A stretch of DNA of 64,000 nt from an uncultured Nitrospiraceae bacterium (GCA_964475485.1 CAYYWY010000002.1:104257-168256), one strand, 5' to 3'. Shown: positions 856 through 22,322, counted from the first letter of the stretch. Notes: generated by a model from the letters alone, not told the origin. Program-made: numbers and translations.

Positions 856-1286
856 GAGTAACACGTAACGCGCACGAGTGACAGTTATCTAAGTATATCA
901 ATTTCGCAGTTCCATTGCCAGAGGTTTTCCCGTGATTTGCCGATCCTCATTTCGTTATGTACTCCCTCGCTGGAAGGGGATGGGTCGAAATCCACTCACC
1001 GAAAGGGTGGAAGAAGGGTGGAAGGTTGTAAGGAGAAAGAGTTAAGGAGTAGTATTACGGAAAAGGGAAAGGGGGGTGGAACGATGCAGGAAGTGCGGAA
1101 ATTTCTTGCAAAAAAAGGTCTTGAGGCAACCCTGAGACCGGCTGTGCCTGTGGATGCAGGCTCTATAGTAAGGACGATAGAATCAGCCTCGATGGAAGAG
1201 GTATATTTGTTTGACGACCTTGACAGCAGTACATTTTGTGCGATACTTCTCTTATAGGTAAGACCCAAACCGAGGAGGGCTTTTCT

Positions 1287-2057
1287 GTGTCTGGGAAGGC
1301 GATCTGGAAGGGGTATATCAATTTCGGAGATGTCAATCTGCCGGTTGGGCTGCACGCAGCCATTAAAGAAGAGCGGATTCAGTTCCACCTCCTTCACAGG
1401 CGGGATCATGTGAAATTGCGTCAGCAGATGATCTGTGCTTATGAAAAACTACACGTTGCCGTGGAAGAGCAGGTCAAGGGTTTTGAAGTGGAGGATGGGA
1501 AATACATCATCGTCGATCCGGATGAGCTGGAACAAACGGCTCCCGAAAGAAGCCGATTGATCGAAGTGCACGAGTTTGTCAAAATCAGGGAGATCGATCC
1601 AGTCTTCCTTGAGAGAGCCTATTACCTGGCGCCGGGTATTAACTTAAAAGGGTATAACGCGCTTGTCGCGGCTTTGAAGGAAACAGACGCGGCGGGCATC
1701 TGCACCTGGGCCATGAGAAAGAGGTACTATTTCGGAGCCTTGCATGCAAGCGGGAAGATTCTTCGCCTGAATACCCTGCGGCATGCGGACGAGGTTGTTT
1801 CCGTAAGGTCGCTTGAACTGGAGCAAGTTCCCTTGCCTGAAAATGAGCTGAAGATAGGGATCGAACTGATCAATCAGCTGACCGTACCTTTTGAGCCGCA
1901 GAAATTCATAAACGAGCATCGGGCGAAGCTGCATAGTTTGATTGATAAGAAGGCCCGTGGAGAAAGGATAGCAATCCTGCGGCCCAGGCGTCTGAAACCC
2001 ACTGCACCGGATAAGCTGCTTCAGGCTCTTGAGGCAAGTTTGAAGAAGGTCGCATAG
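1287..2057 (+). CDS. ku: Ku protein (NHEJ DNA end-binding), paralogue 1
   Basis: KAIWKGYINFGDVNLPVGLHAAI...KGFEVEDGKYIIVDPDELE...IEVHEFVKIREIDPVFLERAYYLAP: bacterial Ku core. Likely start is GTG 1287, 6 nt after GAGGAGGG. The ORF-track start at 1236 is an upstream extension in the same frame. Confidence 0.85.
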   Translation: MSGKAIWKGYINFGDVNLPVGLHAAIKEERIQFHLLHRRDHVKLRQQMICAYEKLHVAVEEQVKGFEVEDGKYIIVDPDELEQTAPERSRLIEVHEFVKIREIDPVFLERAYYLAPGINLKGYNALVAALKETDAAGICTWAMRKRYYFGALHASGKILRLNTLRHADEVVSVRSLELEQVPLPENELKIGIELINQLTVPFEPQKFINEHRAKLHSLIDKKARGERIAILRPRRLKPTAPDKLLQALEASLKKVA

Positions 2058-2172
2058 AGCAAGAAGCGACGAGCAGGAGTAAGGAGCGAGAAACCGCTTG
2101 GTGATTGCTTTGCTTTGATTTTACTTCCCACTTCTTAATTCATATTTCTTAGTTGTTCGGTGGAGGGATGAG

Positions 2173-2952
2173 ATGGCTGTGCAGGGTATATGGAACGGAA
2201 CTATCAGTTTTAGCCTCGTTGCGATTCCGGTACAACTGGTTAAGGCAGTCGAACCGGGCCGCGTCTCATTTCGTATGCTCCACGACAGGGATTACTCTCC
2301 CCTCCGGAGAAGAATGTTCTGTCCCGAAGAAGAAAAGACGGTTTCTCCGGACGAGATTGTCAGGGGATACGAAATCGGTCCCGGGAAATACATACTGATA
2401 ACCGACGAGGAACTGGAATCACTGTCGCCCGAACGGAGCCGCACTATCGAAATTACGGAGTTTATCGATATAAATGAATTGGATCCGATCTATTATGATC
2501 GCCCTTATTATCTTGTACCTTCGAAGGGGGGCGAAAAGGCATATCGGCTGCTGGTCGAGGTGATGAGCCGGACAAACAGGGCCGGCCTGGCAAAATTCGC
2601 GCTGGGGGAGCGCGAGTATCTAGTGGCGGTCAAGAGCACGGAGGGAGCGCTGGCTTTGTTCACCCTTCATTATCGCGAGGAGATAATTCCTGATGAAGAC
2701 ATCTCTCCGAAGAAAGGGGAATTCGAAGCCGAACAGAAGAGCCGCATAAAGAAATACATCAGGGAAATGATGGCAGATTTTAACCCGGGAAAATACGCGG
2801 ACGAACGCCGGAGACAAATCATGGGTATCCTTAAGAAGAAGGCGAAAGAAAAGGTGCCGGTGGAGGCACCTCAAGTCGAAGGGGAAGAGGCGCCGGCCGA
2901 CCTTGTAGCAGCGCTCAAGGAGAGCATGCGCAAAGTGAAAAAGAACCTGTGA
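2173..2952 (+). CDS. ku: Ku protein (NHEJ DNA end-binding), paralogue 2
   Basis: MAVQGIWNGTISFSLVAIPVQLVKAV...RGYEIGPGKYILITDEELESL...IEITEFIDINELDPIYYDRPYYLVP: bacterial Ku core, clearly diverged from paralogue 1. Its stop overlaps the next gene's start (GTGA at 2949-2952). Confidence 0.9.
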   Translation: MAVQGIWNGTISFSLVAIPVQLVKAVEPGRVSFRMLHDRDYSPLRRRMFCPEEEKTVSPDEIVRGYEIGPGKYILITDEELESLSPERSRTIEITEFIDINELDPIYYDRPYYLVPSKGGEKAYRLLVEVMSRTNRAGLAKFALGEREYLVAVKSTEGALALFTLHYREEIIPDEDISPKKGEFEAEQKSRIKKYIREMMADFNPGKYADERRRQIMGILKKKAKEKVPVEAPQVEGEEAPADLVAALKESMRKVKKNL

Positions 2953-3854
2953 GCCGAAGAGCCATCGACTTGGCGGGGAGGAGACTTTCTTTATCGAACC
3001 TTGAAAAGGATCTCTATCCCTCCTACGGCTTTACGAAAGCCCATGTTCTGGAATACTACCGCCGGGTCGCAGTGTTCATCTTGCCCCATTTGGAGGACCG
3101 GGCATTGACTCTGAAGCGATATCCCGGAGGCGTGGATAAGGAGTTCTTTTTCGAGAAACGTTGCCCGGCTCACCGGCCTAAATGGGTAAAGACGGCGGAA
3201 CTCCTCAGGGAGGAAGGAGATCGGATGACGGTCTGCCTGGTCAATGATCTGGAAGCGCTGATATGGGTTGAGAACCTTGCGTCTCTTGAACTCCATGTGC
3301 CCCTTGCCAAAGCGCGTTCCCCTGAAAAACCCGATTCCATGGTTTTCGATCTCGATCCCGGCGATGGATCTGGCATTGTGGATTGCACAAGGGTGGCGCT
3401 TATACTCAGGGACCTTCTCTCCAATCTGAGGCTTGCAAGCTACGTAAAGACCTCGGGCAAGAGAGGTCTCCATCTCTATGTCCCCCTTAACCGCCTGGAA
3501 ACGAATTTTGAGGATACCCGAGCGTTTTCGAAGACCGTAGCGGAAATGATGCAGAGGAATTACCCGGACCTGGTGACCGCAAGAACGGCGAAGCAATACC
3601 GGAGGGGAAAGGTCTTTATCAACTGGTCTCAAAACGACTCAAGAAAGACGATGGTCTGCGTTTATTCCCTGCGTGCCTGCGAAAAACCGGTCGTTTCTTT
3701 CCCCTTTGCATGGAAGGAGTTGGAGAGTTTGGCCCAGCTGGGTGACCCGGATAAGTTCCAGATCATTCATTCGGAAGCCTTAAGCAGGGTCAAAAAACAG
3801 GGCGACCTTTTTCGGGAGGTGCTCGTGAAAAGGCAGAAGCTTCCTTATCTGTGA
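2949..3854 (+). CDS. Stand-alone LigD polymerase/primase domain protein (NHEJ PolDom)
   Basis: LSNLEKDLYPSYGFTKAHVLEYYRRVAVFILPHLEDRALTLKRYPGGV...MVFDLDPGDG...YVKTSGKRGLHLYVPL...GKVFINWSQN: archaeo-eukaryotic-primase-type LigD Pol motifs (DxD, SGxRGxH). GTG start overlaps the Ku2 stop. Confidence 0.85.
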   Translation: MSRRAIDLAGRRLSLSNLEKDLYPSYGFTKAHVLEYYRRVAVFILPHLEDRALTLKRYPGGVDKEFFFEKRCPAHRPKWVKTAELLREEGDRMTVCLVNDLEALIWVENLASLELHVPLAKARSPEKPDSMVFDLDPGDGSGIVDCTRVALILRDLLSNLRLASYVKTSGKRGLHLYVPLNRLETNFEDTRAFSKTVAEMMQRNYPDLVTARTAKQYRRGKVFINWSQNDSRKTMVCVYSLRACEKPVVSFPFAWKELESLAQLGDPDKFQIIHSEALSRVKKQGDLFREVLVKRQKLPYL

Positions 3855-10804: not shown

Positions 10805-13800
10805 ATGAGAAACAGGCGAATCAGTTATTTCAGGGGACCGGCGATAATGTTTCTGGTTGCGGCAGCGTTTTTTGGCTGCCTCTTTTTTCAGACCGGCGTC
10901 CAGGCTTTTACCCTAAATGTAATTGACGGAAACGGCAACCCCATTGTCGGTGGTTTCAGATGGCTCCTTGAAGAAGACAACACCAATCAGTCTCCTCCAG
11001 GCGTACGGGTGAACAACAGCATAGGCGTCGATATACACAAGAGCCATGCACCTCTTGTTTCCAAAGGAAATGCCGCCGGGGATTATGTGATTATCAACTC
11101 AGACATCAACGGCTCTCCCCTTGATCCCGGAAAAAAATATTATGTCTCAGTTGTTCCCGACTCAGGATACACGATGAGCGGCGCGATGGTCGCTCCTGGC
11201 CAGGCAGCGGTGACGGTCAAAGTGCACAGCCTTCCCATACCTACAGCACAGATATCCGTTCTTGTCTTTGAAGATCATAACACCATTAATAACGTCTATG
11301 ACCCCGGCGAGCGTGGACTTGAAGGGTTCACGATACTCATCTCCGACCTTGCGGGGCCTGTTTCCCAGGACGCATTCGGGAACCCGCTCGGAACCGAGTA
11401 CGATGCAGGCGGCAATCCCATCCCGGGATCGGGCAACGGAGTGATCATGACGTGCACTGCCGCCGAGGTGGCAGGAGGATTGAGGGGATGTACCACCGTC
11501 GGTGAGGTGGTGATCAAGAACCTGCCGCCTGGGAAATACGGAGTCAGGGCGGTGCCACCTGCGGGTTCGAACTGGATCCAGACCTCCACTATCGAAGGAA
11601 CGCTTACGGTGGACGCATGGGTGAAAGCAAATGAACCGAGGAAGTTTTTTGAAGGTTTCGGCACAGGGTTCTATCATGTATTCCTCGGCTTTGTGGAACC
11701 GGGGAGCTTGCCTTGGGCGACTAATCCTCCCGGCGGGTCGGGTACTATTCAGGGCAGGAATGTCTTCAATCACTTCTCCCGCCCACCCACTCTTCAGGGG
11801 TTCTTCCCCGGACCCCCCGTGGAAGGCTGCTGGGTCGGCCTGAACGACCTCGTGACCAAGAGAGGTCTCATCGCCGTTCCCTGCGATGGAAACAGCAATT
11901 TCACAATTGCCGGAGTGCCTCCCGGAACATATCAGCTCGTGACATGGGACAAGAACCTCGACGCCCTGTTCGGGTTCAATCTTGTGACCGTCCCGGCCGG
12001 AGGCGGAATTGTGAATCTTGGTAATGTGCTTTCCTACAGGTGGTTCGGTACTTTGATGGGGACAGTGTTTTATGATGCCAACCAGAACGGGTTCCGCGAG
12101 CCCACAGAAACCGGGCTGCCGGATCAGGTGCTTAACATTCGTTTCCGCGACGGCTCGATGTACCAAACGACAACCACCGATATGATGGGGGAATACGCCT
12201 TTACAGAGGTCTTTCCTTTTTTCAAGTGGCTCATAGCTGAGGTGGATTTCGCCCGATATAAGGCAACAGGCATGACAACTGCCGTGGATTACGGCGGCGC
12301 GATCCCTCTTGCAAGCGGCTGGACCGTGCCTTCCTTTGATATGCTTAACCCTCAGCCGCAGGCGAGAGTTAACCCGAATACCGGCAACAACCTTTCAAGG
12401 ACAGAGAAGGGGCCTGTTCTTACTCAGGCCATGCACCTCTTTCTCAATCAGACTAACATAATCGATTGGGGTAAAGCTGACTATAGCCTCGGCCAGAACG
12501 GAGGTATTACAGGCGTTGTATATTATTCCACAACGAGAGCTGAGAACGATCCGCGATACGGAGCACCGGAACCATGGGAGCCGGGAATCCCGAGGGTTCA
12601 GGTCAATCTGTACAAAGATACGGACGCGGATGGCCTCATTGACGATATAAATGGGGTACCTGGAATCCAGCTGGCCGATGTCGATAACTTTCCCCTGGAT
12701 AATTTTCCGGGGCCTGAAGACATCGACAGGAACGGCAACGGGATATTCGATTTAGGCGACGCGATAGATGTTACCCACACAGACAGCTGGGACGACAATA
12801 CTCCGACAGGATGCATCCAGAATCTCCCGGTAATCAACGGCAAGCCCGTGAGGGAATGCTTCGACAACTTCGGCACATGGAACCAGGTGCGTCCGGGCGT
12901 GTTCGACGGCGGGTACGCTTTTCCTACCAGCACGACCATAGTTCTTTCACAGGGCACATATATCGTGGAGACTGTTCCGCCTCCTGGGTATGAGATCGTG
13001 AAGGAGGAGGACAAGAACGTTGATTTCGGTGAGGATTATATTCCCCAGTTGCTTCCTCCTGCCTGTGTCGGGGACGACCATGTAGTGCCCCCCGAACTAG
13101 CCCTCTTCCCGGGTGTGCCGGGTGCTTTTGCGGGCCAGACCAGGCCCCTTTGCGATAAGAAACAGGTTCTTGTGACGCAGAGCAGAAACGCTGCTGCCGA
13201 CTTCTTCCTTTTCACAGAGGTACCGAAGGCGGCGCGTGCAGTGGGTTTCGTCAACAACGACCTCGCGGCCGAGTTCGACAAGAACAGCCCTATTTATGGA
13301 GAGAAATCTGCCCCTGCCTGGATACCCATATCGATTCAGGACTGGACAGGACATGAAGTTGCAAGGGTGTACGCAGACGAGTGGGGTTCCTATAACGCCA
13401 TGATACCTTCCACCTATACCATGAATGTCCCGGCTCCTTCAGGCGTTTCTCCGAATATGCTGACACTTGTGCTGAATCATCCTATCCGTCCTGACGGCTC
13501 TATTGATCCCTTCTATGACCCGAACTACGCCACATCACCTTGGACGTTCCAATTCATGCCTGCGACCACGAGCTATCTCGACACGCCGAATGTCCCTCTT
13601 GCCGCATTCGTCGGCTATCCCAGAGGACAGGTTGATATGGAGCCCGCGGACAAAACGCCGGTAATATCGAAGGTGAGCGGGCCTGAAGGAGGACCTCTCG
13701 TATGCAACACGGGAGGCTCCCTTACCATTAGCTCTTCAGGTTCTGTGCAGGTGCCCAACCCTGACTATAATCCTTCGGTTCCGGGAAGTACCGCTCTTAT

Positions 13801-16423
13801 TACGCGGGATTACGGATTCGGAGCAACGCAGGGAAGTGTGAAGGTGGGCAATACGAGCCTCGCAATTACAAGCTGGAGCAACACGGTCATCTCTGCCACG
13901 GTACCGGCAGGAACGCCCACCGGACAGCTTGCAGTCACAAGGGCTGACAATAGCAGGTCTTCTGAAATAGGAGTGACCGTCCATGTCGTTGACTGCGCGA
14001 CTGTGACAAGACATCACGTTTCGCCAGGACAGTCGATTCAAGCGGCTATCGATGCGGCTTCCCCCGGAGATATCATCCTTGTTAATCCGGGAACATACCA
14101 TGAGAACGTCATCCTTTATAAGAACGTTGTTCTGCAGGGCTCGGGAGCAGGCGCATCCATGGGGGATTTGAATGCGACGATTATCTATGCAAATCCAAGC
14201 CCTGCTGACAGTCTTGCGGCATGGCACAATAAGGTTAGTCTGATAAGGGGCAATGACCCGTTCATTGCGAATGAAGCACCCGGAATAATGGTCTTCGGTG
14301 ACATAGCAGGCTCAGGCTTCTCCCTCACACCGGCGACTACTCCCCGTATCGACGGTTTCCAGATATTCGGGGCCATTCAGGGAGGCGGTATCTACCTTTA
14401 CAATCAGGCCCATCAGATGGTGATCAGCAATAACAGGATAAGAGGCAATCAGGGAAGCTACGGCGGCGGTATCACCGTTGGGGTGCCTGATGCCGGGACC
14501 GGGGCGTTCAGTAACTCTAATGTTACTGTCCAGTTCAACAGGATTACCGGCAATGGGGGAGTTTTCGGTGCAGGCGGAGTGGAGCTTGCCGCCGGTTCCG
14601 ACAATTATATTGTTCAGAACAACATAATCACCGGCAATCTGTCCCGCTGGAACGGCGGGGGCATAGCCCATTATGGGTTGAGCGACAATGGGCTTATTGC
14701 TAAGAACAAGATCACTTTTAACGAAGTGTTCTTCGGTGTGGCGGTCGGCGGCGAAGGAGGGGGTATCTTCATAAGCGGCGAGATCGCCAACGGAAATCTG
14801 CCTGGCGCTCTTGGGGACGGGGCCGGCAATGTGACGATCAACGGAAACCTGATCCAGGGCAATCTTGCAGGTGCAGGAAGCGGCGGAGGAATCAGGGCGC
14901 TCTGGTTCAATGGCGCCGATGTCCCCGACCCAATGCCGGACTACGCCCTTAACATCTTTAACAACGTGATGGCGAATAATGTAGCCGGATTTGCAGGCGG
15001 AGGCATTGCGCTGCAGGACGTGGCGGCGGCCAATATCATCAACAATACCATCGCATACAACGACAGCACGGCCACAACAGCGAACGCCTTTGCTCCCGGC
15101 AGCCTGAGTTCAACGCCCCAGGGAGCGGGCATTGTCTCGAATGTTCATTCAGCAGAACTTGCGGCAGCCACCGGCCAGACATTTTCCAATCCCCTTCTTG
15201 CAAACAATATCATCTGGCGCAACCGTTCATTCTATAACAATCATACCCTCAACGCGGGCGCAGGGGGGCTGGCTCCCAACCCGGCCGGTCCCTATTGGGA
15301 CCTTCAGGTTTCAGGGACTGCCGGAACCATGAATCCAATGTATTGCCTCCTTACGAGTACGACCGGCTATGATCCTTCCAACGTCTCCGGGGATCCGATG
15401 TTCGTCCTTGGATACACAAATTCACTTGCATCGTCAACGGTCCTGGATGAAGCCGGTAACGCGATCACGGTGCGGTACACGCCCCTGAGGGAAAACGCAG
15501 GAAACTACCACATCCTCGGAACATCGCCGGCTGTTGACAAGGGAGCCAATACCTATCTCGCATCTTTCCCTGTGCTGAACAGTGACTATGACGGAGACGT
15601 GAGGCCGAGTCCCGGAACGGGGATTTCAGACATAGGAGCAGACGAAATCAGCAAGACCACGGGTCTCCTTACAATCCAGAAAACAGGCACGGGAACGGGC
15701 ACGGTGACGAGCGGCGACGGTCTCATCAACTGCGGGGCCAGCTGCTCGGCGAATTATCCCCTGGGGACAGTGGTGACCCTCAATGCGCTACCCACTACGG
15801 GATCTGTTTTCGCAGGGTGGTCGGGCGCCTGTACGGGCACGAATCCGACATGCCAGGTCACAATGAATGCCGACAAGACGGCAACGGCAATGTTTAACGT
15901 AGCACCGGCGTGTACTTATTCCATTACCCCGACTTCCCAGAACTTCGGCTCCGGAGGAGGCACCGGTAATGTGAATGTGACAGCCACTGCCGGATGCAAC
16001 TGGACCGCTGTAAGCAACGCGGCGTGGATCACGGTCACCGGAGGTGCAAGCGGGACGGGCAACGGTGTTGTCACTTACTCCGTGGCTGCGAATACAGGCG
16101 GCGCAAGGACGGGGACGGTCACGATCGCAGGCCAGAATTTCACTGTGTCGCAGGCAGGAGCAGGCGTTACCTGTACATACTCGATCACCCCGACGTCCCA
16201 GGTGTTCCGTTCAGGCGGAGGCACCGGCAGCGTAAGCGTGATAACCACGTCAGGGTGCGAGTGGACGGCAAACAGCAACGCCGGATGGATCAAGCTCACC
16301 GGAGCAAGCAATGGAAAGGGCAGTGCGACGGTGACCTACTCGGTATCGGCGAATATCACCGGTATGACGAGGACAGGAACGATAACTATCGCGGGAAAGA
16401 CGTTCACTGTTACCCAGTATTAG
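10805..16423 (+). CDS. Giant (1872 aa) secreted multidomain protein: Ig-like/SdrD-B-like repeats, IPT/TIG, right-handed beta-helix, InlB B-repeat, 2x BACON-like
   Basis: Signal peptide [34 protein letters not shown]. SdrD-B-like segment [48 protein letters not shown]-like [12 protein letters not shown]...[18 protein letters not shown]. PbH1 repeats [46 protein letters not shown]. InlB B-repeat [25 protein letters not shown]. Two modules of [10 protein letters not shown]...GCxWTA.SNAxWI...VTYSV.AN...RTGT.TIAG..FTV.Q. Confidence 0.85.
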
Positions 16424-16505
16424 GATGGCTATGTTTCAGACACTATTCTTAAAGGATGCTTCCCCCGGTTCGACCGGAGGCGCGGGCCTGAAAAGGAGTG
16501 ATGAT

Positions 16506-17729
16506 ATGAGACTGAATTGTCGTTACGTGCAATACCTCTTTGCATTGCTTTTTGTGGCAGTGTTGATGATGCCGGCGGAAGGCGCGGTAAATATTCAGTG
16601 TCCCTGTCCCCCCGGCACCCCTGTTCAGCCCCCACCACCCGTGGGATCAGGGAATATTGAATGCACCATCGGCTTGAGGAATATCGCCTGCAAACATCTC
16701 ACCGCGGGGGATGGTTTTGTAAAGATGGCGGACGGCAGCGATATCTATATCTTCGGGTTCTCCGACGTCACGGGGCTTCAGGCGGACCAGGTTATGAACG
16801 CCGGGATGCTGGCGGCGAATTTCTCCGCGCCTACAATCATCGTGAGGGAAGGGCAGGAACTGTATCTGACCCTCACCAATGTGGGCATGGTGATGAGGCC
16901 GGACCTCTTTGACCCTCATACTGTCCATTATCACGGATTCCCTAATGCCTCTTCGGTATTTGACGGCGAGCCTATGGCGTCAATATCAGTCAATATGGGG
17001 GCGAGCCTCACTTATTATTACAACATTGTCGAGCCGGGTACGTATATGTATCACTGTCATGTCGAGGCCACGGAGCATATGCAGATGGGCATGCTCGGCA
17101 ATCTCTTTGTGACACCCGCACAGGACGGGACTACCATCAACGGTTTTTCGAAGTTCGCCTATAATGATACGGACGGCTCCACAGGGTATGATGTTGCATA
17201 CCCCGTTCAGATCGTAGCCTTCGATCCCATATTCCATGAGGCGGACCTTATCATTCAGCCTTTGCCTTTTGCTTCAATGTTCGATTCCTACGGGATGCTG
17301 AACGGAAGGGGATATCCGGACACAATAAACACCTCGGTGATCTTCAACAAAGACGGGATGCCTTCTCAGCAGATGAACGCGTTGATTACAGCAACCAAAG
17401 GTCAGAAAATACTCCTTCGGGTCTCCAGCCTCTCCACAGTCGATTTCAATACGTTGATATCTCCCTCTATCCCGATGAAAGTGGTGGGAAGAGGTGCGAG
17501 AATAGCCAGGGGCCCGGACCCCGACGGCGCCGGGCCGCTTCAGGGAAAGAACCTCTACTACACCACGAACTCCCTTACCCTCGGAGGCGGGGAGTCGTTT
17601 GACGTAATCCTTGATACATCCGCTGTTCCCGCAGGAACATACTTCCTGTACTCTTCAAATCTTCACAACCTTAGCAACGACAGCGAGGATTTTGGAGGGA
17701 TGATGACTGAAATCGTTGTGAACCCGTGA
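16506..17729 (+). CDS. Two-cupredoxin-domain multicopper-oxidase subunit A (domain 1 carries T1 site plus four T2/T3 His; domain 2 ligand-free)
   Basis: ATG 16506 after AAAGGAG; signal peptide MRLNCRYVQYLFALLFVAVLMMPAEGA. DPHTVHYHGF (HxxHxH) and GTYMYHCHVEATEHMQMGMLGNLFV (HCH..H....M). No HxH motif in the C-terminal half. Confidence 0.85.
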   Translation: MRLNCRYVQYLFALLFVAVLMMPAEGAVNIQCPCPPGTPVQPPPPVGSGNIECTIGLRNIACKHLTAGDGFVKMADGSDIYIFGFSDVTGLQADQVMNAGMLAANFSAPTIIVREGQELYLTLTNVGMVMRPDLFDPHTVHYHGFPNASSVFDGEPMASISVNMGASLTYYYNIVEPGTYMYHCHVEATEHMQMGMLGNLFVTPAQDGTTINGFSKFAYNDTDGSTGYDVAYPVQIVAFDPIFHEADLIIQPLPFASMFDSYGMLNGRGYPDTINTSVIFNKDGMPSQQMNALITATKGQKILLRVSSLSTVDFNTLISPSIPMKVVGRGARIARGPDPDGAGPLQGKNLYYTTNSLTLGGGESFDVILDTSAVPAGTYFLYSSNLHNLSNDSEDFGGMMTEIVVNP

Positions 17730-17753
17730 GTGAGAATGATCAGGAGGAAAGAT

Positions 17754-19058
17754 ATGAATAATCAAGCTCAAAAGCACAAGAGGATGCTCATTATGCTAAT
17801 GGCTGCGCTCCTGGTCGCTATTCCCGCGACCGGGGTGGCTGTTATTGATGGCATCAGCGGAACAACATTCAGCCTGACGGCAAAGGATGGTTATATCAAC
17901 ACAGGGGACGGAGATTCGGTTTACATGTGGGGATATGCCGACGGGGCAGGTCCAATGCAGTATCCCGGACCAACCCTGATCCTCAACCAGGGAAGTGTTG
18001 TTACGGTGACCCTGACTAACCAGCTGGCCGTTCCTGTTTCGATTGTTTTTCCCGGGCAGGATGTCACTGCCACGGGAGGGATGCCGGGGTTGATCACCCG
18101 GGAAGCGCCTCCCGGCGGTAGCGTCACTTATACGTTCACAGTCTCACAGCCTGGGACGTACATGTATCACAGCGGAACGCGTCCTGACCTTCAGGTCGAG
18201 ATGGGGCTAATAGGTGCGATAGTCGTTAGACCGGCACCAGGGCCAAATTGTCCAGCTCCGGCCCCGGACCCTTCGAAGCCGAGCAGGGGATACGCCTATT
18301 GCAGTCCTGATGCCTACTTCGACAGGGAATACCTCTTTCTCCTTTCCGATATGGACCCGTCGATCCATCAGCTTGTGGAGACGGGTAAAATGGAGAACGT
18401 AGACAATACGATGCGCTATCCGGTTTTATGGTTCATCAACGGGAGAAATCTTCCCGACACGCTGGCACCTGCCTTTGCATCCTGGCTTCCGAACCAGCCG
18501 TATAACATCTTTCCTCAGATGCATCCGTTTGAGAAGGTGCTGATGAGGATCATCGGCGGCGGAAGAGATCCACATCCATTTCACACTCATGGCGCAAACC
18601 ACCTCATCATCGCGCGCGACGGCAGGCTTCTGAAAACCACGGCGGCCACTTTACCGGACCTGGCCGAGTCCGATTTCACTACAACCTCCGTTCCCGGAGA
18701 GACAGTCGATGCTATTTACGTATGGACCGGCGAGAAGCTGGGCTGGGACATTTACGGCCATACTGATCCCACGTCTCCTTGCGATCCGACAGTGGAGTAC
18801 TGTCCTGACCACGGCAAGCCTTTTCCCGTAGTCCTCCCCAATCAGCTGGACCTGACCAATGGGATGTTCTGGAGCGGGAGTCCTTTCCTCGGAATTGAAG
18901 GTACTCTTCCTCCCGGTGAAGGCGGCTTTAATCCCTATGCCGGAATATTTATGATGTGGCACTCCCACAATGAAAAAGAATTGACGAATAACAATATTTT
19001 CGTCGGTGGCATGGCAACAATGGCGGTAATCCAGCCACCCGCCGCGCCGATCCCGTAA
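17754..19058 (+). CDS. Two-cupredoxin-domain multicopper-oxidase subunit B (domain 1 ligand-free; last domain has two HxH motifs, no T1 Cys)
   Basis: ATG 17754 after AGGAGGA; signal peptide. Domain 1 has VSIVFPGQ and GTYMYHSGTRP where MCOs have HWHG and WYHSH. The C-terminal domain has RDPHPFHTHGANH and IFMMWHSHNEKEL (HSH instead of HCH). Confidence 0.85.
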   Translation: MNNQAQKHKRMLIMLMAALLVAIPATGVAVIDGISGTTFSLTAKDGYINTGDGDSVYMWGYADGAGPMQYPGPTLILNQGSVVTVTLTNQLAVPVSIVFPGQDVTATGGMPGLITREAPPGGSVTYTFTVSQPGTYMYHSGTRPDLQVEMGLIGAIVVRPAPGPNCPAPAPDPSKPSRGYAYCSPDAYFDREYLFLLSDMDPSIHQLVETGKMENVDNTMRYPVLWFINGRNLPDTLAPAFASWLPNQPYNIFPQMHPFEKVLMRIIGGGRDPHPFHTHGANHLIIARDGRLLKTTAATLPDLAESDFTTTSVPGETVDAIYVWTGEKLGWDIYGHTDPTSPCDPTVEYCPDHGKPFPVVLPNQLDLTNGMFWSGSPFLGIEGTLPPGEGGFNPYAGIFMMWHSHNEKELTNNNIFVGGMATMAVIQPPAAPIP

Positions 19059-19071
19059 TGAGGAGGATGAA

Positions 19072-21717
19072 ATGAAAATGAAGGACATCTTGTCGGTCGG
19101 CAAACTCGGAGCGGTTGTTCCTATGCTGATGGTCGTCACCATTCTTGCGGCGGGAATATCCCATGGCGCCAGTGTTGACGTTTATCTCAAAGCAGGGGTG
19201 ACCACAAAGACTATTAACGGTGCTGCAATTGCTATGTGGGGCTTTGCTCAGTGTACGGACGGAACCTTTGCCTCTTGCGGGGCCGTATCAGTGCCAGGTC
19301 CGGCCCTGACGGCTACCGAAGGTGATGCTCTGAATATCCATCTCAGAAACGATCTTACCGGGCCATTCACCGAGCCTGTTTCGATCGTTATACCTGGCCA
19401 GATTACTGCCATGAATCCGGTCTGGATTGACGGCCTCGGAAATGTTGTCTCCACCGGCTCACGGTTGCCGGGCGACGTCACTTCGAGGGTGAGGTCTTTT
19501 ACGGCGGAGACGCCTGTAGGTGGAACCTCGACTTACACCTGGAGTAACGTTAAGTCGGGAGCGTACATATATCAGAGTGGTACACACCCGGCGGTTCAGG
19601 TACAGATGGGCTTATATGGAGTCCTCGAAGTCTTGCCGGTGACACCAGCCCGGGCTTACGAAGATCCTTCAACCGCTTATGATGCAAGGGTGGCACTTTT
19701 ATTCAGTGAAATCGATCCCGCCCTTCACAACGCAGTTGCGACAGGCACATACGGCCCCCCAGCTGGACCCGGAAGGATGACGAGCACAGTCAATTATAAT
19801 CCCGCCTACTTCCTCATTAATGGAGAACCGTACACGGCCGGTCTTGCGCCGATACCAGCTGGCCTTCCCGGGCAGAAGGTGCTTGTCCGTTTCCTTAATG
19901 CGGGGCTGGAATCGAAGGTTCCTACGCTCCAAAATCAATATATGACAGTGATCGCTGAAGACGGCAACCTCTATCCCAATCCGAAGGAACAGTACTCTGT
20001 ATTTCTGCCCGCAGGGAAAACTCTCGACGCAATTATGTCTTCTGCAAGCGCAGGATATATTCCAGTATATGACAGAATGCTGAACCTGACAAGCGGACCT
20101 GCATCGCCTGGAGGCATGCTGAGGTACCTGGAAATTGCCTCGCTTAACAAGTATGTTCTTACGGTGAACAAAGCAGGTTCAGGGACCGGGATAGTGGAGG
20201 CGACGAGTCTTCCCGGAGGCATAAGCTGCGGACTAACCTGCAATAGGGCATACAACGAGGGTACTATGGTTAAACTCAATGCGACACCTGCGGCAGGTTC
20301 GGTATTCGCCGGCTGGTCCGGGGCATGTGCCGGCACTGGTCCGACGTGCATTGTCACCATGGACGCCGCCAAGACAGTTACGGCAACTTTCAATGTTTCC
20401 GGTTCATGGATCACGGTGCTATCACCTAACGGAGGAGAGAACTTCCAGATTGGTACTACCCAGACGATTCGGTGGTCCTACAGCGGAACTCCCGGTACTG
20501 CTGTGCATATTCAGCTGCTCAAGGGGGGGGCGATTTATTCGACTATCACTAACAGTACCCCTATAGGTTCCGGTCAGTACAACTGGAACATCGGCAGATA
20601 CGCTGCCGGTAGTACGTACACGATAAAGATAACAAGTACGACAAACAGTCTTTACACAGACACGAGTGACGCTGCGTTCACTATATCCGGGGCTGGATGT
20701 GTCTATTCGATCTCGCCCACATCCATCTTCTTCCCAGTTGCAGGAGGCACTGGAAACGTGAATGTTACTGCATCTGCCGGATGTGCCTGGACGGCTGCAA
20801 GCAATGTGCCGTGGATAGCGATAACGGCGGGTGCAACCGGGACGGGCAGCGGGACAGTGACATACACTGTCTTTGCCAACACGGGAAATCTGAGAACCGG
20901 CACAATGACCATCGCAGGGAAGACCTTTACAGTGACACAGGACGGCAGTGGAGCCTGCACATATGCCATAGTTCCGACAAATCAGATCTTTAATGCAGCC
21001 GGAGGCTCAGGGAGTGTTACTGTAACCGCCCCTGCAGGATGCGCCTGGACTGCCGTGAGCAATGCTGCATGGATCACCGTTACAGGCGGAGCAGCCGGAA
21101 GCGGCAATGGTACGGTCACCTATTCGGTGGGCGCTAATGCGGGCGGTGCAAGAACCGGAACAATGACTATTGCAGGGCAAACGTTCACGGTGAATCAGTT
21201 GGCGCCGGTTGCTTGCACATATTCGTTGTCTCCAACGAGTCAGGCGTTTCTTGGTGCTGGGGGTACCGGCAGTGTGGCCGTGACAGCGCCGGCAGGTTGT
21301 GCATGGACCGCGGCGAGCAACGCCGCCTGGATCGCTGTTACCGGCGGGGCCGGGGGTAACGGCAACGGGACGGTGAATTATTCCGTAGCGCCGAACGCCG
21401 GGAATCAGAGGACAGGGACAATTACTATCGGAGGACAGACATTCACGGTGATTCAGGGCGGCGTTACAGTATCGGGCAAGATATTGAACGCCTCCGGTAT
21501 TCCAATTCCCGGGGTTCTGCTTACTCTTACAGGCCCGGTGACGACAACCACCACTACCGACAGATCGGGCGAGTACCAGATCAGGGGCGTGCCCGACGGC
21601 GGCTATATATTGACGCCGAGCCTGACAGGCTACGGCTTTACGCCTGCAAGCAGGTCATTCACTGTAAGCGGAAACAATGTTGAGGCACAGAACTTTACCG
21701 GAGCCAGATTGAGATAA
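19072..21717 (+). CDS. Copper-ligand-free two-cupredoxin-domain protein (subunit C) fused to InlB B-repeat, Kre9/KNH-like, 3x BACON-like and CarboxypepD_reg-like domains
   Basis: Signal peptide. MCO-like fold markers PGPALTATEGDALNIHLRN, VSIVIPGQ, GAYIYQSGTHPAVQVQMGLYGVLEV and YFLINGEPY..GQKVLVRFLNAG, but no HxH or HCH anywhere. Then [28 protein letters not shown]; WITVLSPNGGENFQIGTTQTIRWSYSG; three C.Y.I.PT...GC.WTA.SN..WI modules; VSGKILNASGIPIPGVLLTLTG...GEYQIRGVPDGGYILTP. Confidence 0.8.
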   Translation: MKMKDILSVGKLGAVVPMLMVVTILAAGISHGASVDVYLKAGVTTKTINGAAIAMWGFAQCTDGTFASCGAVSVPGPALTATEGDALNIHLRNDLTGPFTEPVSIVIPGQITAMNPVWIDGLGNVVSTGSRLPGDVTSRVRSFTAETPVGGTSTYTWSNVKSGAYIYQSGTHPAVQVQMGLYGVLEVLPVTPARAYEDPSTAYDARVALLFSEIDPALHNAVATGTYGPPAGPGRMTSTVNYNPAYFLINGEPYTAGLAPIPAGLPGQKVLVRFLNAGLESKVPTLQNQYMTVIAEDGNLYPNPKEQYSVFLPAGKTLDAIMSSASAGYIPVYDRMLNLTSGPASPGGMLRYLEIASLNKYVLTVNKAGSGTGIVEATSLPGGISCGLTCNRAYNEGTMVKLNATPAAGSVFAGWSGACAGTGPTCIVTMDAAKTVTATFNVSGSWITVLSPNGGENFQIGTTQTIRWSYSGTPGTAVHIQLLKGGAIYSTITNSTPIGSGQYNWNIGRYAAGSTYTIKITSTTNSLYTDTSDAAFTISGAGCVYSISPTSIFFPVAGGTGNVNVTASAGCAWTAASNVPWIAITAGATGTGSGTVTYTVFANTGNLRTGTMTIAGKTFTVTQDGSGACTYAIVPTNQIFNAAGGSGSVTVTAPAGCAWTAVSNAAWITVTGGAAGSGNGTVTYSVGANAGGARTGTMTIAGQTFTVNQLAPVACTYSLSPTSQAFLGAGGTGSVAVTAPAGCAWTAASNAAWIAVTGGAGGNGNGTVNYSVAPNAGNQRTGTITIGGQTFTVIQGGVTVSGKILNASGIPIPGVLLTLTGPVTTTTTTDRSGEYQIRGVPDGGYILTPSLTGYGFTPASRSFTVSGNNVEAQNFTGARLR

Positions 21718-21797: not shown

Positions 21798-21869
21798 AAA
21801 ACCGGGAGCAGATATTTTCTCTCCTCAAGAATGCTATAGTAATTATTGTATTGTAAGAAGCGATTTCTT

Positions 21870-22322
21870 ATGAAGACACGTAATCTTGCAGCGATAACTT
21901 CTTTTCTGTTTCTCTTCCTTGTTCCTCCTCAGGTCTTCTCCGAAGGCGGAACTAAAGAAGCTCCGGCTGCCGTGCAAAAAGGAGACCATGGCATTGAAAA
22001 GAGGTGGGGTGTGCAGATAATATCCTTACGGCTGTCTGCAGGAGGTGCCATGCTCGATTTCAGGTACAGGCTTACGGATCCTGAAAAGGCCAGGCCCCTC
22101 TTCGACCGCGGGATCAAGCCCTATCTTATCGATGAGACGAGCGGCGCCAAGCTTCTTGTGCCTAACGCCCCCAAGCTGGGAGCCCTCAGGCAGACCCCGA
22201 AGAATCCGGTTGCAGGCAAGAATTATTTTGTCCTTTTTACGAATCCGGGCGTTGTTAAGGCAGGGAACAAGGCGACCGTTGTTATCGGTGATTTTAGGGC
22301 TGAAAACCTCACCGTGGAATAG
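21870..22322 (+). CDS. Secreted hypothetical protein
   Basis: ATG 21870 gives MKTRNLAAITSFLFLFLVPPQVFSEG (signal peptide). I do not recognise any motif. Coding-like composition and no competing ORF. Confidence 0.5.
   Translation: MKTRNLAAITSFLFLFLVPPQVFSEGGTKEAPAAVQKGDHGIEKRWGVQIISLRLSAGGAMLDFRYRLTDPEKARPLFDRGIKPYLIDETSGAKLLVPNAPKLGALRQTPKNPVAGKNYFVLFTNPGVVKAGNKATVVIGDFRAENLTVE

Follow-up and report, generated by a model that had tools for sequence, protein, structure and literature searches.

We analyzed a 64,000-nucleotide stretch of DNA from an uncultured Nitrospiraceae bacterium (GCA_964475485.1, CAYYWY010000002.1:104257-168256; hereafter the window), which carries a cassette of five genes, three of which encode related two-cupredoxin proteins. 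The five open reading frames (ORFs), here called G, A, B, C and D, lie head to tail on the plus strand; the genes on either side, a UvrA-like gene and mutS2, are encoded by the opposite strand (Table 1). Intergenic distances along G-A-B-C-D range from 13 to 152 nucleotides, and GGAGG-type ribosome-binding sites precede B and C. Sec-type signal peptides were recognized on all five products and a twin-arginine motif on none. A, B and C are three separate ORFs, each with its own signal peptide, such that the six cupredoxin domains do not reside in one polypeptide. Alternative starts are available for A (ATG at 16425) and D (TTG at 21846), and B begins at 17784 in a public record, giving a protein of 424 residues. 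Promoter and terminator scans returned the same counts as shuffled sequence.

A preliminary description of this DNA had presented A, B and C as a three-gene cassette. The three plus-strand ORFs and all of the motifs it quoted are present where it placed them, and A, B and C do form a unit. The conserved unit is larger, comprising five genes rather than three, with G upstream and D downstream.

Table 1. Genes, domains and copper-ligand motifs of the cassette, numbered from the first nucleotide of the window. T1, type 1 copper site; TNC, trinuclear copper cluster.
Feature	Position	Strand	Description and basis
G	10805-16423	+	1,872 aa, secreted; ORF and Pfam
A	16506-17729	+	407 aa, two-cupredoxin protein, Sec-type signal peptide
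HTVHYHG, A domain 1	16917-16937	+	residues 138-144; H138, T1 ligand; H141 and H143, TNC ligands
HCHVEATEHMQMGM, A domain 1	17052-17093	+	residues 183-196; H183 and H185, TNC; C184, H191 and M196, T1
B	17754-19058	+	434 aa, two-cupredoxin protein, signal peptide
SIVFPG, B domain 1	18039-18056	+	replaces HxxHxHG; all three His gone (alignment to 3G5W and 2ZWN)
YMYHSG, B domain 1	18159-18176	+	replaces H-C-H segment; Cys to Ser, second His to Gly, downstream T1 His to Gln
HPFHTHG, B domain 2	18573-18593	+	residues 274-280; H277 and H279, TNC ligands; H274, ancestral T1-His position
B-specific conserved insertion	18729-18944	+	about 70 residues, between the domain-2 His motifs; hhalign
WHSH, B domain 2	18957-18968	+	residues 402-405; H403 and H405, TNC ligands; Ser in place of T1 Cys
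C	19072-21717	+	881 aa; cupredoxin core and tail
C core	19072-20136	+	two cupredoxin domains without copper ligands; Pfam, hhalign to B
SIVIPGQ in C	19381-19401	+	ligand-free motif
YIYQSGTHP in C	19564-19590	+	ligand-free motif
C tail	20149-21717	+	Flg_new_2, Kre9/KNH Ig-like, three BACON and one CarboxypepD_reg; Pfam; lineage-variable
D	21870-22322	+	150 aa, secreted; family unassigned

All three cupredoxin proteins contain Cu-oxidase domains that scored above the Pfam gathering thresholds (Cu-oxidase, Cu-oxidase_2 and Cu-oxidase_3 models). For A, phmmer identified the type-C two-domain oxidases 3G5W, 3GDC and 2ZWN as the nearest relatives in the PDB. The match to residues 31-126 of 3G5W included both domain-1 motifs, with HTVHYHG of A aligning with HTIHWHG and HCHVEATEHMQMGM aligning with HCHVNVNEHVTMRGM. 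The eight ligand residues within these motifs (H138, H141, H143, H183, C184, H185, H191 and M196) were 100% conserved in 81 sequences. Domain 2 of A contained no HxH motif and, when A was aligned with B by hhalign, no His at the positions of HPFHTHG and WHSH of B. Among the three proteins only A has a T1 site (His, Cys, His and an axial Met); B and C have none.

The complementary ligands were found in B. A profile built from 32 B sequences was compared with the PDB, and HPFHTHG aligned with HAIHTHG of 3G5W and HAMHSHG of 2ZWN, while MWHSH aligned with MIHDH and IFHDH, the respective domain-2 cluster motifs. In domain 1 of B no ligand was left relative to these enzymes: HxxHxH has become V-S-I-V-F-P, and H-C-H...H has become Y/H-S-G...Q. 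Across 77 B sequences, H274, H277 and H279 were 100% conserved and H403 and H405 99%. S96 and G101 of the SIVFPG motif are invariant. The insertion between the two domain-2 motifs is absent from A, C and 3G5W. Its invariant residues include W331, D332, Y334, D352, H353 and P358, and it may cap or gate the copper cluster. The best single-sequence PDB matches of B were copper nitrite reductase (NirK) entries, yet B lacks the Cys and the domain-1 His, and this assignment was rejected. NirK combines a domain-1 T1 site with an inter-subunit T2 site of three His; the cassette as a whole was likewise rejected as a NirK, as A carries the oxidase-type HxH and HCH pattern.

The Cu-oxidase part of C comprises roughly its first 350 residues by Pfam. 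Neither of its two domains has a His at a ligand position (hhalign), and an HxH motif was present in 0 of 73 C sequences. The core occurs alone as a 339-residue protein in Dissulfuribacter, and the tails of C homologues differ or are absent. In the window, the tail of C is 61-64% identical to the BACON repeats in the tail of G. More broadly, the tails of G (15600-16423) and C (20150-21400) have Flg_new_2 and BACON modules in common at 46-64% identity, and other lineages use different tail domains. The two tails seem to be swapped or to co-evolve within a genome.

Profile comparisons by hhalign extended over both domains and related A to B (99.8% probability, 26% identity) and B to C (100% probability, 30% identity), identifying all three as ancient paralogues of a type-C two-domain multicopper oxidase. 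The type-C enzymes, namely the Nitrosomonas europaea blue copper oxidase (3G5W), the metagenomic mgLAC (2ZWN) and the Arthrobacter oxidase (3GDC), have the same two-cupredoxin fold as A, B and C. As in A, their domain 1 carries T1, HxxHxH and HCH. As in B, their domain 2 carries two HxH motifs, with the T1 Cys position replaced (by Asp in 3G5W and Ser in B). The type-C trimer is a ring of six cupredoxin domains in which neighboring chains share each trinuclear copper cluster, one contributing its domain 1 and the other its domain 2. For two-domain laccases, homotrimers whose active sites lie between monomers have been described (PMC3192119).

In the cassette, the alignments establish a partition of these ligands. 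Domain 1 of A holds the T1 site and four cluster His, domain 2 of B holds four His, and the other domains hold none. No single protein has more than two HxH motifs, neither A nor B combines the domain-1 and domain-2 motifs that mark a type-C chain, and the complete set of eight His plus T1 exists only in A and B together. Whereas type-C oxidases have all ligands on each chain and three complete sites, the cassette spreads them over two paralogues, with a third holding none, and allows at most one site per ring. The sequences imply that no homotrimer, whether of A, of B or of C, would be able to complete a cluster.

The preliminary description had placed T1 and four His in domain 1 of A, with an empty domain 2; had read B as having lost its domain-1 ligands and as carrying four His in domain 2, with Ser for Cys and hence no T1; and had seen in C two oxidase-like domains without HxH motifs, fused to surface-type domains. 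Each assignment is borne out, for A by alignment to 3G5W and by hhalign, for B by alignment to 3G5W and 2ZWN, and for C by Pfam, hhalign and the 73-sequence alignment. The ligand positions match those of the two-domain oxidases 3G5W and 2ZWN, neither A nor B has four HxH motifs, and the combined set of A and B is invariant across phyla.

Searches with A, B and C each returned thousands of relatives at 45-70% identity. In alignments of 73-81 sequences per family, drawn from at least ten phyla, ligand complementarity was 99-100% conserved. Because the split-ligand pattern is conserved across many phyla, A, B and C most likely work only as a mixed complex. Conservation also extends to the ligand-free sites, where SIVxPGQ and YxSGT are kept in both B and C. 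As the replacement motifs are themselves conserved, they point to a structural role rather than decay. Tandem paralogues often degenerate, and the ligand losses might in principle mark decaying duplicates (pseudo-enzymes) that accompany one formerly complete oxidase and carry no functional meaning. However, each of the three families retains 45-70% identity across phyla, the ORFs are as a rule intact and encode signal peptides and conserved "dead" motifs, and a complete single-chain oxidase was found inside the cassette in none of the 80 loci described below. We consider decay extremely improbable, and the conservation data effectively refute it.

Genomes were scanned at one genome per species. 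At least 577 species matched, and the best 80 loci were analyzed at the level of the whole locus. These come from Nitrospirota, several Desulfobacterota orders, Planctomycetota, Acidobacteriota, Myxococcota, Bdellovibrionota, Hydrogenedentes, Bacteroidales and Gammaproteobacteria (including Gallionella, Sideroxyarcus, Thiobacillus, Sulfuricella and Methylococcales). With all ORFs classified, the gene order G-A-B-C-D was seen nearly everywhere in these loci. A, B and C were complete in 72 of the 72 loci with enough contig; the other eight are contig ends or contain a frameshift. Separate occurrence of A, B and C had been named beforehand as a refuting observation. It was found in none of these 72 loci, nor in Dissulfuribacter or Cupriavidus.

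Two cultured representatives illustrate the range. Dissulfuribacter thermophilus, an anaerobe, carries G (1721 residues), A (403), B (425), C (339) and D (140), with an S8 peptidase next in line. In Cupriavidus metallidurans CH34, a model organism for metal resistance, the second replicon (NC_007974.2, 1331440-1356957; L082) carries A, B, a C-G fusion and D, with two LolA-like genes and a cytochrome c downstream. Although only 38% and 40% identical to their window counterparts, A of CH34 has HTVHFHG and HCH...H...M, B has HPFHEHG and WHSH, and the C module has no ligands. This region has no annotation in the plasmid gene table. B homologues at 40-42% identity also occur in Paraburkholderia and Ralstonia. 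The hosts include iron oxidizers, metal-resistant Cupriavidus, plant-pathogenic Ralstonia and many anaerobes.

Natural fusions connect most of the products. G is fused to A in seven loci (L062, L069, L074, L077, L080, L028 and L073), where immunoglobulin-like (Ig-like) or cadherin-like spacers replace the signal peptide of A, and C is fused to G in L021, L071 and CH34. A profile search with the B family against 1.84 billion representative proteins (50%-identity clusters) gave 621 matches at E <= 1e-30. Among the top 150, P0393 (1,156 aa) and P0402 (884 aa) join a ligand-bearing B module to a ligand-free C module through an Ig-like linker, with no second signal peptide. As these fusions join G to A, C to G and B to C, they argue for physical association of the cassette products. 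Four further candidates (P0455, P0488, P0489 and P0512) resemble products of frameshifts that run one gene into the next and were discarded, and L010 was not counted as a G-A fusion, as its A retains the signal peptide. P0393 and P0402 belong to a divergent, high-GC branch that also contains P0476, a tandem C-C protein with a dockerin-like end. Together, P0476 and the B-C fusions suggest alternative subunit arrangements.

Two features of A vary among these loci. Its N-terminal segment (window 16596-16718) contains a Cys pair, QCP ... C-x-HL-x-x-GDGF, kept in 89% of sequences. As both Cys are gone in some G-A fusions (L069, L074 and L077), the pair may form a disulfide needed only in the free subunit. 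In Planctomycetota loci (L058:8633-10000, L079 and L051), A has an N-terminal extension of about 440 residues matching the PAP2 superfamily, with motifs reminiscent of vanadium haloperoxidase or acid phosphatase.

From the ligand partition, the conserved gene set and the fusions, we think that G-A-B-C-D is probably one conserved operon for a secreted heteromeric multicopper oxidase, built as a B-A-C ring with a single A/B cluster. A heteromer is the simplest account of the data. Such an enzyme would contain A, B and C once each, arranged cyclically as B-A-C. Its only complete site would be located where domain 2 of B meets domain 1 of A, while the ligand counts predict that the two other interfaces are copper-free. 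C, in the third position, would close the ring. Electrons would enter at the T1 copper of A and travel across the Cys-His bridge H183-C184-H185 to the composite cluster, where O2 would be reduced to water. G, which is joined to A or C in some genomes, or the variable tails might tether the ring to the envelope, matrix or a solid substrate. As to the electron donor, a metal ion or mineral-bound Fe(II) is our leading, speculative guess, drawn from host ecology and from the magnetite proteomics of Sideroxydans lithotrophicus ES-1 considered below.

Ligand logic forces only the pairing of A with B. C, with its variable adhesin-like tails and its occurrence as a tandem C-C protein, might instead stand outside the ring as an adaptor or adhesin on a cupredoxin scaffold. 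A and B would then still share the composite cluster, either in a ring completed by a second A or B or as an open A-B pair on G. We judge this arrangement to be possible but unlikely. The two-domain core of C is universal and about 50% conserved, even in the tail-less Dissulfuribacter protein, and B-C and C-G fusions exist. Moreover, the known relatives, two-domain oxidases and NirK, are closed trimers.

G lies directly 5' of A in most of the 80 loci and, among the partners of A, B and C, is the most conserved. It has SdrD_B/Ig-like regions, a right-handed beta-helix at about residues 1078-1450, and a variable tail of Flg_new_2 and two BACON domains. Its conserved core extends to about residue 1615 (DIGADE), with 37-64% identity over these roughly 1,615 residues. 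Pfam matches in the N-terminal 1,000 residues or so were weak or local only, and no cupredoxin region was detectable in G. D lies 3' of C in 64 of 80 loci. It has an LxGC lipobox, marking it as a lipoprotein, in most genomes but not in the window copy, and its alignment contains no conserved His, Cys or Met.

Accessory genes extend the cassette in some lineages. In about 36 of the 80 loci the gene immediately after D encodes an S8 subtilase, and in proteobacterial loci the additions include SCO1/SenC and a cytochrome c that is fused to a periplasmic-binding domain (examples of these additions are L067:14961-18954, L061, L043, L042, L063, L037 and L081:9822-11552). SCO1 was confirmed only in Gallionellaceae-type loci, which also have the cytochrome c, and not in CH34. 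The window contains no S8 subtilase, SCO1/SenC or cytochrome c gene.

The cytochrome c and SCO1 genes of some proteobacterial loci suggest an electron-transfer chain, and many hosts are anaerobic. Both observations would fit separate homo-oligomers of A, B and C with degenerate sites, acting in sequence with G outside the cell. On this view A, with T1 and a partial copper site, would transfer electrons, while B and C would bind copper or serve a structural purpose. We find this improbable. Four His on one face without a partner correspond to no known copper site, and the long invariance of complementary cluster halves, in register with 3G5W, would be hard to explain.

Structure prediction confirmed the cupredoxin fold, both for A and for a B-C fusion homologue. 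A alone, modeled with AlphaFold2 (AF2) from 25 sequences, reached a predicted local distance difference test score (pLDDT) of 70.7 and a predicted template modeling score (pTM) of 0.72, with the copper loops least confident. Foldseek comparison of this model gave target template modeling scores (TM-scores) of 0.68 for 3G5W, 0.72 for 3GDC and 0.69 for 2ZWN, the range over these three and NirK being 0.68-0.74. The AF2 model of P0402, the natural B-C fusion, had a pLDDT of about 90 in both modules and a pTM of 0.67, with about 130 disordered residues. By arithmetic alone, this pTM exceeds that expected for independent placement of the modules. In Foldseek searches with the P0402 model, six-domain factor V/VIII, ceruloplasmin and MnxG ranked first, with a query TM-score of 0.38-0.40 compared with 0.28 for a single two-domain chain.

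Several observations weigh against the B-A-C oxidase. The matches of P0402 to six-domain proteins are poor in geometry, and because their root-mean-square deviation is 15-18 Å, the model falls short of confirming a ring. Linkers in the fusion proteins are long, the fusions leave the ring order unfixed, and the tandem C-C protein hints at other stoichiometries in the divergent branch. Assembly, stoichiometry and copper content are all predictions from sequence. With respect to the roles of the outer genes, G has no sequence relative in the PDB and D has no match in the PDB or Pfam. Finally, an O2-reducing enzyme would be unexpected in strict anaerobes, to which many of the host lineages belong.

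In ceruloplasmin the T1 sites lie in even-numbered domains, and the cluster is located between domains 1 and 6. Ceruloplasmin, hephaestin and MnxG resemble the cassette in having six cupredoxin domains, a single trinuclear cluster and copper-free pseudo-interfaces, as predicted for the cassette from its ligand counts. However, these six-domain oxidases are single polypeptides, whereas the cassette consists of three genes, places T1 in a domain-1-type position and has type-C ancestry. The ceruloplasmin-like layout put forward in the preliminary description therefore stands with regard to one cluster per six domains, as counted from ligands; in ancestry and T1 position the two differ, the cassette being a subfunctionalized type-C two-domain oxidase, and the analogy is loose.

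Heteromeric assemblies offer two further comparisons. In the Bacillus Mnx system, MnxG alone holds all catalytic ligands, and MnxE and MnxF are small accessory proteins rather than oxidase paralogues contributing cluster ligands. The Mnx complex (MnxG with MnxE3F3; PDB 9BXA) would resemble the cassette products as a bacterial oxidase that works only as a multi-protein complex from one operon. Nmar_1354 of Nitrosopumilus maritimus (PDB 9CCK) is a two-domain oxidase trimer described as an alpha-alpha-alpha-prime "heterotrimer". Its subunits come from a single gene and differ in whether they bear a dangling extra cupredoxin domain; unlike the cassette, it has complete clusters at all three interfaces.

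A related gene cluster has been noted in S. lithotrophicus ES-1, where it was described as "three tandem MCO" (multicopper oxidase) or "three cupredoxin" genes (PMC5566968; PMC12016527). Keffer et al. (2025) found Slit_1812-1818 to be more abundant on magnetite than on Fe(II)-citrate (PMC12016527). They called Slit_1817 and Slit_1818 canonical oxidases, described Slit_1816 as a larger cupredoxin protein that lacks the motifs and has adhesin- and lyase-like parts, and listed similar clusters for Paraburkholderia, Ralstonia, Anaeromyxobacter and Steroidobacteraceae (PMC12016527). Compared by published description only, Slit_1812-1818 is largely alike in composition to the CH34-type cassette, with two oxidase-motif proteins, a C-G-like Slit_1816, small proteins and a cytochrome c. 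The ES-1 cluster includes SCO1 and cytochrome c, whereas both are absent from the window, where G is a separate upstream gene. A link to OmpB/MofA was rejected, as the literature assigns these large single-chain oxidases to another family (PMC5566968).

Neither ES-1 paper proposes a split site or a heteromer (PMC5566968; PMC12016527). Our literature searches, with most subscription journals outside their reach, turned up no proposal of a multicopper oxidase that is heteromeric or has a split site. Within that scope, the earlier suggestion that such an enzyme is undescribed holds for the split site, while the related ES-1 cluster had already been noticed. To our knowledge, there is no earlier case of a trinuclear cluster shared between different gene products.

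Multicopper oxidases are textbook enzymes, and the case that their asymmetric three- and six-domain members evolved from symmetric two-domain trimers has been made on structural grounds only. A naturally occurring heterotrimer in which one interface is live and two are dead would supply the missing, subfunctionalized stage. On the fuller proposal the evidence appears to us evenly balanced. It would make the cassette products an obligate heterotrimeric oxidase, with one cluster built from two gene products and a copper-free paralogue closing the ring, carried by a giant conserved beta-helix protein in a widespread extracellular machine. Such an assembly would represent a surviving intermediate on the way from symmetric two-domain trimers to six-domain oxidases that lack this symmetry, and its electron donors might be solid or mineral-bound. 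The host range, together with the induction on magnetite of the related Sideroxydans cluster, suggests that the underlying biology may be extracellular metal or mineral redox chemistry. Current annotation treats family members as ordinary "multicopper oxidases" or "manganese oxidases" that act independently, and predictions of laccase, Mn-oxidase or Fe-oxidase potential from genomes therefore probably miscount this family. Several hosts are cultured, which makes the system directly testable.

Elsewhere in the window, and unrelated to the oxidase cassette, a tandem pair of Ku genes is followed by a LigD primase-polymerase gene (1236-3854), forming a bacterial non-homologous end-joining set.

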